Of a stretch of DNA of 64,000 bases, positions 4,248 through 57,470 are shown piece after piece. Positions within the stretch are counted from its first letter, which is position 1; the number at the start of each line of letters is the position of its first letter. The notes under the pieces were generated by a model that saw nothing but the letters and a program-made list of their open reading frames with translations, did not search any database and had not been told where the DNA came from. The translations under genes were made by a program, and so were the position numbers. The stretch lies in the NCBI GenBank assembly GCA_964016885.1, contig OZ024754.1, positions 8,990,001 to 9,054,000 of the forward strand, read 5' to 3'. The DNA is from Eledone cirrhosa (lineage: Eukaryota).

Positions 4248-5693
4248 ATGGAAAATAAATTGAGTGAGAAGAAGATTAAATGTGAAACATTATCTGAAGA
4301 TATTACTAATCCAGAAGACATGCCAAACGATAGAGGAGAGAAGCCATATCACTGTGATATCTGTCGTAAATCATTCTCTCGAAGTAATCATTTTTCTAGA
4401 CACAAACATATACATACAGGAGAGAAGCCATATCACTGTGATATCTGTCGTAAATCATTCACTCAAAGTACTACCTTAACTACGCACAAACGTATACATA
4501 CAGGTGAGATACCATATGACTGTGATATTTGTGGTAAATCATTCTCTAAATCGGATACATTAACTATTCACAAACATATACATACAGGAGACAAGCCGTA
4601 TCACTGTGATATCTGTGGTAAATCTTTCTCAGTAAGTGGTACATTAACTTCTCACAAATATACACATACAGGAGAGAAGCCATATCACTGTGATATTTGT
4701 GGTAAATCATTCTCTAAATCGGATACATTAACTATTCACAAACGTATACATACAGGAGAGAAGCCGTATCACTGTGATATCTGTGGTAAATCTTTCTCAG
4801 TAAGTGGTACATTAACTTCTCACATACGTACCCATACAGGAGAGAAGCCATATCACTGTGATATCTGTGGTAAATCATTCGCTAAATCGGATACATTAAC
4901 TATTCACAAACATATACATACTGGAGAGAAGCCATATCACTGTGATATCTGTGGTAAATCATTCTCAGTAAGTGATAAATTAACTACTCACAAATATACA
5001 CATACAGGAGAGAAGCCATATCACTGTGATATCTGTGGTAAATCATTCTCTCAAAGTGGTCACTTAAGTACACACAAACGTATACATACAGGAGAGAAAC
5101 CATATCATTGTGGTATCTGTGGTAAATCATTCTCAGTAAGTGATAAATTAACTTTTCACAAATATACACATACAGGAGAGAAGCCATATCACTGTGATAT
5201 CTGTGGTAAATCATTCGCTAGATCGGATACATTAACTATTCACAAACGTATACATACAGGAGACAAGCCATATCACTGTGGTATATGTGGTAAATCTTTC
5301 TCAGTAAGTGGTACATTAACTTCTCACATGCGTAGCCATACAGGTGAGAAGCCATACCACTGTGATATCTGTGGTAAATCATTCTCTAAATCGGGTGCTT
5401 TAACTATTCACAAACGTATACATACAGGTGAGAAACCATACCACTGTGACATCTGTGGTAAATCATTCTCTAGTTCAGGTGATTTAACTATTCACAAACG
5501 TACACATACAGGAGAGAAGCCATACCACTGTGACATCTGTGGTAAATCATTCTCTGTATCGTGTGGTTTAACTAGTCACAATCGTATACATACAGGAAAG
5601 AAGCCATATCACTGTGATATCTGTGGTATATCATTCTCTGTATCAAGTAGGTTAACTAGACACAAATATACCCATACAGGTGAGAAACCATAA
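4248..5693 (+). CDS. C2H2 zinc-finger protein, copy 1, 481 aa, 16 fingers, uninterrupted
   Basis: 16 x 28-aa CxxC-x12-HxxxH repeats with TGEKPY linkers after a short N-terminal leader; no KRAB/SET/BTB domain visible. Confidence 0.93.
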
Positions 5694-5900
5694 CAAAGTC
5701 ATCTCATTATCTCAAAATGGTGATTTTATTAGACACAAATACATTCATATAAATGAAAAGCCATACCATTGCTACATTAATTACACCCAAACTGTGATGT
5801 CTGTGATAAATCATTCTCTAAATGTCGTGGCTTCAGTAGACACTAACATATACAGCAGAGGAACCACATCAGTGCGATGTCTGTGGTAAATGATTCTTTT
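5694..5900 (+). pseudogene. Old, heavily decayed zinc-finger repeats in the 3' UTR (present after every copy)
   Basis: Fragments read [40 protein letters not shown] and PHQCDVCGK*F, with frameshifts between them. Confidence 0.8.
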
Positions 5901-5988
5901 GGACAGGTTACTTAATGCAAGAGAATCAGACAAGATAAAAACCATATCACTCACCCAAAATAGTGCCACCAATGTTGTAAGTATTTTG

Positions 5989-54877: not shown

Positions 54878-56461
54878 ATGGAAAATAAATTGAGTGAGAA
54901 GAAGATTAAATGTGAAACATTGTCTGAAGATATTACTAATCCAGAAGACATGGCAAACGATAAAATAAGGAAGTCATATCACTGCGATATCTGTGGTAAA
55001 TCATTCACTCAAAGTAGTACCTTAACTAGACACAAACGTATACATACAGGAGAGAAACCGTATGACTGTGATATTTGTGGTAAATCATTCTCTAAATCGG
55101 ATACATTAACTATTCACAAACGTATATATTCGGGAGAGAAGCCATATCACTGTGATATCTGTGGTAAATCATTCTCAGTAAGTGATAAATTAACTTCTCA
55201 CAAATATACACATACAGGAGAGAAGCCATATCACTGTGATATCTGTGGTAAATCATTCTCTCAAAGTGGTCACTTAAGTACACACATACGTATACATACA
55301 GGAGAGAAACCATATCACTGTGGTAAATCATTCTCAGTAAGTGATAAATTAACTTCTCACAAATATACACATACAGGAGAGAAGCCATATCACTGTGATA
55401 TCTGTGGTAAATCATTCGCTAAATCGGATACATTAACTATTCACAAACGTATACATACAGGAGAGAAGCCATATCACTGTGATATCTGTGGTAAATCATT
55501 CTCTCAAAGTGGTCACTTAAGTACACACAAACGTATACATACAGGAGAGAAACCATATCACTGTGGTATCTGTGGTAAATCATTCTCAGTAAGTGATCAT
55601 TTATCTAGACACAAATATACACATACAGGAGACAAGCCATATCACTGTGGTATCTGTGGTAAATCTTTCTCAGTAAGTGGTACATTAACTTCTCACATGC
55701 GTAGCCATACAGGTGAGAAGCCATTCCACTGTGACATTTGTGGTAAATCATTCTCTGTATCGTGTGGTTTAACTAGTCACAAACGTATACATACAGGAGA
55801 CAAGCCATATCACTGTGATATCTGTGGTAAATCATTCGCTAAATCGGATACATTAACTATTCACAAACATATACATACAGGAGACAAGCCGTATCACTGT
55901 GATATCTGTGGTAAATCTTTCTCAGTAAGTGGTACATTAACTTCTCACATACGTACCCATACAGGTGAGAAACCATTCCACTGTGACATCTGTGGTAAAT
56001 CATTCTCTCAAAGTGATCAATTATGTAGACACAAACGTATACATAGAGGAGAGAAGCCATATCACTGTGATATCTGTGGTAAATCATTCTCTCAAAGTGG
56101 TCACTTAAGTACACACAAACGTATACATACAGGAGAGAAACCATATCAATGTGGTATCTGTGGTAAATCATTCTCTCAAAGTGATCATTTATCTAGACAC
56201 AAATATACACATACAGGAGAGAAGCCATATCACTGTGATATCTGTGGTAAATCATTCTCTCAAAGTGGTCACTTAAGTACACACAAACGTATACATACAG
56301 GAGAGAAACCATATCACTGTGGTAAATCATTCTCAGTAAGTGATAAATTAACTTCTCACAAATATACACATACAGGAGAGAAGCCATATCACTGTGATAT
56401 CTGTGGTAAATCATTCGCTAAATCGGATACATTAACTATTCACAAACGTATACATACATGA
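54878..56461 (+). CDS. C2H2 zinc-finger protein, copy 7, 527 aa, same protein as copy 4, truncated
   Basis: Translation identical to 31491..33074 at offset 23387. Confidence 0.8.
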
Positions 56462-57470
56462 GAGAAGCCATATCACTGTGATATCTGTGGTAAATCATTC
56501 TCAGTAAGTGATAAATTAACTTCTCACAAATATACACATACAGGAGAGAAGCCATATCACTGTGGTAAATCGTTCTCAGTAAGTGATAAATTAACTTCTC
56601 ACAAATATACACATACAGGAGAGAAGCCATATCACTGTGATATCTGTGGTAAATCATTCGCTAAATCGGATACATTAACTATTCACAAACGTATACATAC
56701 ATGAGAGAAGCCATATCACTGTGATATCTGTGGTAAATCAGTCTCAGTAAGTGGTACATTAACTTCTCACAAATATACACATACAGGAGAGAAGCCATAA
56801 TACTGTGATATCTGTGGTAAATCTTTCTCAGTAAGTGGTACATTAACTTCTCACATGCGTAGCCATACAGGTGAGAAGCCATACCACTGACATCTGTGGT
56901 AAATGATTCTCTCACAATGGTCACTTAAGTACACACAAACGTATACATACAGGAGACAAACCACATCACTGTGGTATCTGTGGTGTATCATTCTCATTAA
57001 GTGCTGCATTAAATTCTCACATACATACCCATACAGGTCAGAAACCATACCACTGTGACATCTGTGGTAAATCATTCTCTAGATCGGGTTATTTAACTAT
57101 TCACAAACGTACACATACAGGAGACAAGCCATACCACTGTGATATCTGTGGTAAATCATTCTGTAAATCGGGTGATTTAACTAGTCACAAACGTATACAT
57201 ACAGGAGAGAAGCCATACCACTGTGACATCTGTGGTAAATCATTCTCTGTATCGTGTGCTTTAACTATTCAAAAACGTATGCATACAGGAGAGAAGCCAT
57301 ACCACTGTGACATCTGTGGTAAATCATTCTCTGTATCGTGTGGTTTAACTAGTCACAAACGTATACATACAGGAAAAAAGCCATATCACTGTGATATCTG
57401 TGGTATATCATTCTCTGTATCAAGTAGGTTAACTAGACACAAATATACCCATACAGGTGAGAAACCATAA
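56462..57470 (+). pseudogene. Relic zinc-finger tail of copy 7
   Basis: Same as 33075..34083. Confidence 0.88.

Follow-up and report, generated by a model that had tools for sequence, protein, structure and literature searches.

The window, a 64,000-nt stretch of Eledone cirrhosa DNA (C14:8990001-9054000), carries seven C2H2 zinc-finger arrays on the same (+) strand, each preceded by the same short leader. Six-frame translation and unit cutting agreed with an earlier note on this DNA that had described seven near-identical genes, and placed their ATGs at 4248, 13660, 23818, 31491, 39737, 47642 and 54878. In 264 kb around the window we found 13 arrays of the same type (g1-g13), located at 8.95-9.07 Mb of C14 in this 3.0-Gb genome. 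Copies 1-7 of the window are g5-g11 of this 13-unit tandem array. Every unit contains a whole ORF, made of a short leader and 12-34 finger units, and together the 13 arrays hold 279 84-bp units, 132 DNA haplotypes and 52 helices. The seven window copies are as follows.

4248..5693, + strand: copy 1 (g5), full-length ORF of 481 aa with a 33-aa leader and 16 fingers
13660..14748, + strand: copy 2 (g6), 362-aa ORF, closed by a linker stop that follows unit 12; beyond the ORF the array extends to 15670
23818..24906, + strand: copy 3 (g7), all 24 units equal to those of copy 2, 0 substitutions over ~7.5 kb; array to 25828
31491..33074, + strand: copy 4 (g8), chimeric, ORF of 527 aa; array to 34080
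39737..41347, + strand: copy 5 (g9), 536-aa ORF, cut off in unit 19 by a 2-nt frameshift; array to 41672
47642..49171, + strand: copy 6 (g10), full-length ORF of 509 aa with 17 units, one of which has lost a His
54878..56461, + strand: copy 7 (g11), all 31 units equal to those of copy 4, 0 substitutions over ~7.8 kb; array to 57467

The last two fingers of copy 5 and a relic finger are present a second time after its array (41673-42069). The parts of the unit that surround the ORF are listed below.

3860..4247, + strand: predicted splice acceptor and leader of copy 1, with the exon start at 3885 and a 363-nt untranslated leader of the terminal exon
13296, 23454, 31128, 39374, 47276 and 54515, + strand: predicted exon starts of copies 2-7
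5694..6110, + strand: 3' region of copy 1, with degenerate finger relics and AATAAA at 5989
15971, 26129, 34381, 42295, 49469 and 57768, + strand: AATAAA signals of copies 2-7
6176..9508, + strand: spacer core common to the units, consisting of family 3' flank, high-copy repeats and a LINE-like relic

All seven window copies have both an acceptor and a poly(A) signal. The pyrimidine tract and AG of the acceptor were kept in 21 of 21 aligned family members, and splicing is predicted to take place at this site. The untranslated leader of the terminal exon has stops in all three frames. Within the spacer, broken frames at 7607-7879 and 8086-8349, which are repeated in the units, resemble what we take to be the end of an RTE-type LINE reverse transcriptase; a Pfam search of three spacer frames gave 0 matches for this relic. 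The long spacer of copies 2 and 3 also holds 37-bp and 48-bp minisatellites (10457-10622 and 20615-20780; 12536-12685 and 22694-22843). Contigs of sequencing runs X1-X4 cover the spacer as genomic DNA would and contain no usable splice joints. In the contigs of X1, which may be the source sample, depth was 84-120 for unit-specific pieces and 5 for one array-end piece; this depth is not copy number and was left out of inference.

The exon had been described as free of any effector domain. Consistent with this, we found no known effector among the best 25 of 29 Pfam families, and over the same families copies 1 and 6 matched zinc-finger families or gave weak cross-matches. KRAB, SSXRD and PR/SET were likewise absent from the C14 ORFs among the best 25 of 29 families for each ORF. 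The protein leader is weakly constrained (omega 0.77). It has no Pfam match, and a protein database search with the leader alone returned no relative; a search with residues 1-60 returned mainly generic fingers, mostly of vertebrates, with some Octopus proteins of similar finger style. The leader contains the residues IKCE (4275-4286), which we take to fit a SUMO acceptor consensus and which are kept in most relatives.

The seven copies contain five finger orders, as the earlier note had counted, because copy 2 equals copy 3 and copy 4 equals copy 7. Among all 13 arrays there are 11 distinct orders. The flanks were said to be almost identical, and the 1 kb upstream of the ATG is indeed 0-24 nt apart among the seven copies (97.6-100% identity) and 0-30 nt apart among g2-g13. 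Despite these near-identical flanks, two arrays can share as few as 2 of 16 collinear near-identical units. The orders are built mostly from the same helices; the nine that had been named make up 100 of the 147 84-bp units of the window. The helix library is local, and 2 of the 132 helices of 20 dispersed relatives were found in the C14 array.

Recombination at two levels, finger and gene, had been proposed, and our data support both. Over the upstream 1 kb, copy 4 differs from copy 1 at 1 nt and from copy 2 at 24 nt. Its units 12-27 (16 consecutive units) and its 1-kb 3' flank match copy 2 exactly, down to the stops of that copy. Copy 4 therefore joins a copy-1-like 5' flank to copy-2 3' units and flank, as an unequal crossover inside the array would produce. 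The upstream neighbour of the window, g4, has a 9-unit internal duplication. Inside the 84-bp finger, linkage disequilibrium drops with distance (rho -0.16, permutation p 0.007), and exact two-parent mosaics make up 62 of the 132 haplotypes, of which just 2 lie at least 3 nt from their nearest neighbour. Of three helices that had been cited as hybrids, VSDHLSR has one haplotype that is exactly a mosaic of two parents. RSDTLTI is one helix base from KSDTLTI, and QSDHLTR is 3 nt from QSGHLST and does not belong to the 2 distant exact mosaics.

An identical twin in another unit was found for 188 of the 279 finger units, compared with 63 that have a twin in the same unit. In the 9 non-redundant arrays, adjacent finger pairs recur far above chance: there are 122 distinct neighbour pairs among 192, compared with 160.5 in shuffles (minimum 147). 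Helix types in these arrays hold 5'-to-3' zones, and VSSRLTR is terminal in all of them. The shuffling is real, and "combinatorial" is too strong a word for it, because fingers move in blocks and keep their 5'-to-3' zones; it is block-wise and polar, not free. Unequal recombination is the likely cause of the differing orders. As a caveat on exchange, copy 4/7 is the only clean between-unit recombinant, and many of the common fingers could be inherited from an ancestral unit instead.

The reported Ser at position +1 was found in 147 of 147 window units. Its codon is AGT in 73 and TCG/TCA in 57 of the 132 haplotypes, and a change between AGT and TCG/TCA needs several base changes, which implies that the helix classes long predate the gene copies. 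Variation does fall mainly at the contact positions, with heterozygosity peaks at -1, +2, +3 and +6 (0.71-0.80). The scaffold had been called nearly invariant. This was overstated: fingers within one gene average 81-84% DNA identity, or 86-89% without the contact codons, and positions -2, +8, +9 and +10 and the linker E/D are variable (heterozygosity 0.34-0.57). Small and aliphatic residues are common at the contact positions (V at -1 in 126, T at +3 in 102, and S or I at +6 in 186 of the 279 units), a composition that may give weak base specificity.

A non-synonymous excess at the contact positions, expected by the earlier note, exists and is moderate and old. Pairwise pN was 0.54 at contact codons and 0.10 at non-contact codons, with an overall pS of 0.26. 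A codon model of 130 haplotypes gave an omega of 2.1 for contact, 0.51 for other and 0.10 for structural codons, with a small gain for contact omega over omega = 1 (2 x delta lnL 4.1); these figures are rough, because the codon tests presuppose a single tree, an assumption broken by recombination, and draw on four codons. On a spanning tree, the contact excess is found on edges of at least 3 nt (omega 2.3-3.7), and omega is 1.0 on edges of 1-2 nt. The latter hold 16 contact changes, with 15.4 expected, 7 structural changes, with 26 expected, and 0 changes at Cys, with 8.9 expected; no amino-acid change at Cys was found in any of the 132 haplotypes. The fold has therefore been protected recently, and new contact residues have not been favoured. 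A private-allele test, in which 6 of 46 fell at contact codons, is biased against variable columns, and the spanning-tree edges were used in its place. The non-synonymous share of the private alleles (37 of 46) is the neutral one.

The dispersed relatives have a common upstream block that is in places 88-94% alike and contains two donor motifs and an acceptor. We interpret this block as spliced untranslated exons, here called the head; its exons were called from splice motifs alone and are predicted to be non-coding. Of 13 dispersed relatives, 10 have the second donor motif, 5.7-12.3 kb upstream of the ATG; in the genome the motif occurs at 404 places, compared with 3 for a control. The head donor motif had no match in 464 kb around the C14 array, 260 kb upstream included. 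A 200-N assembly gap lies 112 kb upstream of g1, inside the 464 kb searched, so the sequence beyond it may not be contiguous. The C14 unit retains about 810 bases before the ATG, and g1 retains a different, shorter part. Two features were recognised in the retained DNA.

3440..3884, + strand: remnant of the family upstream region in copy 1, with homology to dispersed relatives from 3440-3444
3580..3640, at the same place in each unit, + strand: ~60-nt element, a candidate small exon or proximal promoter

Because the 5' edge at 3440 is sharp and resembles an element end, capture by a mobile element was considered. This was rejected: 20 dispersed relatives are alike further upstream, and because their homology continues there the edge is the breakpoint of the C14 array itself. 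The ~60-nt element is 98-99% conserved across the 20 dispersed relatives, while neighbouring bins are roughly 80-95% conserved; it is found in 12 of the 13 units and is absent from g1. A coding role for it was also rejected: most of its few changes are non-synonymous, and 6 of 20 relatives have lost its AG. The candidate donor that follows it is mutated in 3 of the 7 window copies. By its predicted boundaries, the amplified unit is the last exon only.

Two dispersed relatives have no head within 15 kb, and both are on C27. On the - strand of C27 (19,432,995-19,636,135) there is a single head at 19,635,364, followed by 26 same-strand units down to 19,432,995. No gap and no second head were found in 400 kb around one of the relatives. 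The 25 ORFs without a head retain 10-26 fingers, and none has lost more than the last two. Judging by the divergence of the leaders, 14-18 nonsense changes would be expected under neutrality in 22 of these 25 ORFs, the 3 rows with misaligned flanks being left out. Nearly intact frames where so many nonsense changes are expected point to expression, and the C27 units are probably expressed from the common head or from an unrecognised promoter.

The ORF ends early, through a stop or frameshift, in 5 of the 7 window copies and in 8 of the 13 array units. Five different first lesions account for the 8 truncated units, and none of them lies before unit 12. In 9 of 13 units there are fingers with a 9-nt in-frame deletion, and stops and Cys-deleted fingers have been copied together with intact ones. 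The C14 array holds 3 stop substitutions where 6-8 are expected, which suggests that it is under weaker constraint than the C27 units. Truncation is also common among the dispersed relatives and so need not follow from loss of the head.

Our data probably reflect a young 13-unit array of last-exon copies of an octopus C2H2 gene, its finger orders remodelled by unequal crossing-over and gene conversion and its units in a birth-and-death phase. Under this explanation, misaligned 84-bp fingers of the same or neighbouring units would serve as recombination substrates, so that blocks are gained, lost or swapped and the predicted DNA target changes in one step per event. The helix library would have been diversified earlier under positive selection; during the recent history of the array, selection appears to have kept the fold intact and not to have favoured new contact residues. 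Because the unit does not include the family upstream exons, the copies probably depended on a common or substitute promoter. Many copies are likely losing their last fingers, and the products would be effector-less putative DNA binders.

We asked how other explanations fit these observations. The array could be one gene with many alternative last exons, in which transcripts from one upstream promoter are spliced to one or another of the tandem finger exons, each encoding a complete transcription factor. The form of the unit, which has its own acceptor and poly(A) signal and lacks a head, would fit this, and the Cys codons are still conserved in the C14 array. On C27, one head precedes 26 units over 200 kb whose frames are near intact. 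Genome-wide we counted 761 acceptor motifs for the 404 head-donor motifs, although the two motif patterns differ in length and degeneracy. However, a poly(A) signal follows every unit, and with no family head within 260 kb upstream of the C14 array a different promoter would be needed there. We regard this explanation as rather unlikely. The wider proposal is just as tentative: part of the octopus C2H2 expansion might consist of alternative-last-exon arrays in which one promoter serves tens of complete ORFs whose orders are rewritten by recombination, with C27 the working form and C14 an array on another promoter or one recently cut off from its head. If true, it would be a two-tier generator of DNA-binding specificity.

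Alternatively, each unit could be a gene of its own that has gained an internal promoter, engaged like KRAB-ZNF and FiNZ-ZNF genes in an arms race with transposons. The presence of the conserved 60-nt element in 12 of 13 units and the omega above 1 at contact codons would fit, and the available text of PMC10547256 describes an enrichment of transposon consensus sequences for predicted octopus ZNF motifs. Yet recent contact changes occurred at the neutral rate, 8 of 13 units are truncated, the leader has an omega of 0.77 and no Pfam match, and 3 of the 7 window copies carry a mutated candidate donor after the 60-nt element. Such independent genes seem to us a doubtful account of the array.

It is less likely still that the array is a silent pseudogene satellite whose promoter was lost at the birth of the array and whose fingers were shuffled neutrally. 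An array without a head, its flank on a long branch, the spread of stops and broken fingers between copies, and the 37 of 46 private alleles that are non-synonymous as under neutrality would fit it. Against it stand the absence of Cys amino-acid changes in 132 haplotypes, the 7 structural changes where 26 are expected, the 3 stop substitutions where 6-8 are expected, and the position of the first truncations, all at or after unit 12. Finally, that the duplicates are partly an assembly artefact is very improbable: copies 2/3 and 4/7 show no substitution over 7.5-7.8 kb, but beyond the identical stretch the pairs differ by 27 and 18 substitutions plus small indels, and 11 of 13 arrays are distinct.

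A young array of last-exon copies gives a base-level view of how new arrays arise in the cephalopod zinc-finger expansion, which is itself unexplained. Most fingers can differ between copies with flanks about 1% apart, and near-identical flanks with different arrays provide a natural series for binding assays. If the units do share a head, gene counts for the family are inflated and splicing chooses among specificities. Finger shuffling in young ZNF clusters is already known in mice, as far as the available literature texts go. We found no description of cephalopod finger shuffling or head-less exon arrays in the openly available article listings and text passages covered. Our analysis suggests that what is new here is the amplification of the last exon as a unit, and that whole-ORF cassettes behind one head are worth testing.

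Hundreds of clustered poly-C2H2 genes are known from the coleoid expansion (PMC12513265, PMC9068888, PMC13218726), and the C14 family, whose units are also clustered, has at least several hundred members. In their available text these papers cover counts, trees and expression and do not describe finger-level shuffling or head-less exon arrays; the words "gene conversion" and "recombination" do not occur in the text available for PMC12513265. The cyprinid FiNZ-ZNF genes are likewise a lineage-specific ZNF expansion outside the mammals, and they too have a short N-terminal peptide and selection on contact residues; FiNZ, however, is a conserved domain on its own exon in the text available (PMC10547256), whereas the C14 leader lies in the finger exon and is weakly constrained. 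A conserved repressor domain of KRAB or FiNZ type on an upstream exon was not found, the leader having neither a Pfam match nor a database relative.

Clusters of tandem 3' cassettes offer a different likeness, and lola and mod(mdg4) are examples of them. In Drosophila PGRP-LC, CG42235 and pip, terminal cassettes are tandemly duplicated, each with an acceptor and a poly(A) signal, and a common coding region splices to 3-10 cassettes according to the accessible part of PMC6191721. In contrast, each C14 cassette holds a complete ORF, the family head is predicted to be non-coding, and no head was found in the 260 kb upstream of the array, a stretch with one gap.

The array had been called PRDM9-like, and this holds as an analogy only. 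The 84-bp units, concerted evolution and diversity at -1, 2, 3 and 6 are shared (PMC5519329, PMC2779102). The share of diversity at these positions (P) is 0.41-0.52 in the C14 array, inside the low end of the range for complete PRDM9 in the available text (0.33-1.0; PMC5519329) and a little higher than in 19 dispersed relatives (0.32-0.46). P reached 0.41 or more in 3 of 119 comparison proteins, though most of these proteins are ZNF205 orthologues. There is no PR/SET domain, none of the 18 SET and 14 PR matches lies on C14, and the fingers are just 81-84% alike. Finger pairs above 90% identity make up 8-28% in the 13 genes, short of PRDM9-type homogeneity and unlike mouse Prdm9, in which all pairs exceed 90% by the text available (PMC2779102). 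Omega is about 2 in the C14 array, while it is given as 10-14 in human PRDM9 in the parts available of PMC5519329 and PMC2779102, and PRDM9 is one locus where C14 is a multi-copy array. Two PR/SET exons in opposite orientation lie elsewhere, on one small contig (C1132:436,356-447,122), and are a possible PRDM duplication. The C14 array is likely a partly decaying pool of predicted DNA-binding variants and not a PRDM9-type gene.

The closest parallel is with young mouse KRAB-ZNF clusters such as that of Chr4. The available texts describe recent segmental duplication there, repeated runs of 2-7 fingerprints within and between paralogues and many pseudogenes, and propose non-allelic recombination (PMC5363842, PMC12575710). 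The C14 array is also young, with rearranged fingerprint arrays and pseudogenes. It differs from the mouse clusters in that there is no KRAB exon, the ORF lies in one exon, and the amplified unit does not include the 5' exons.
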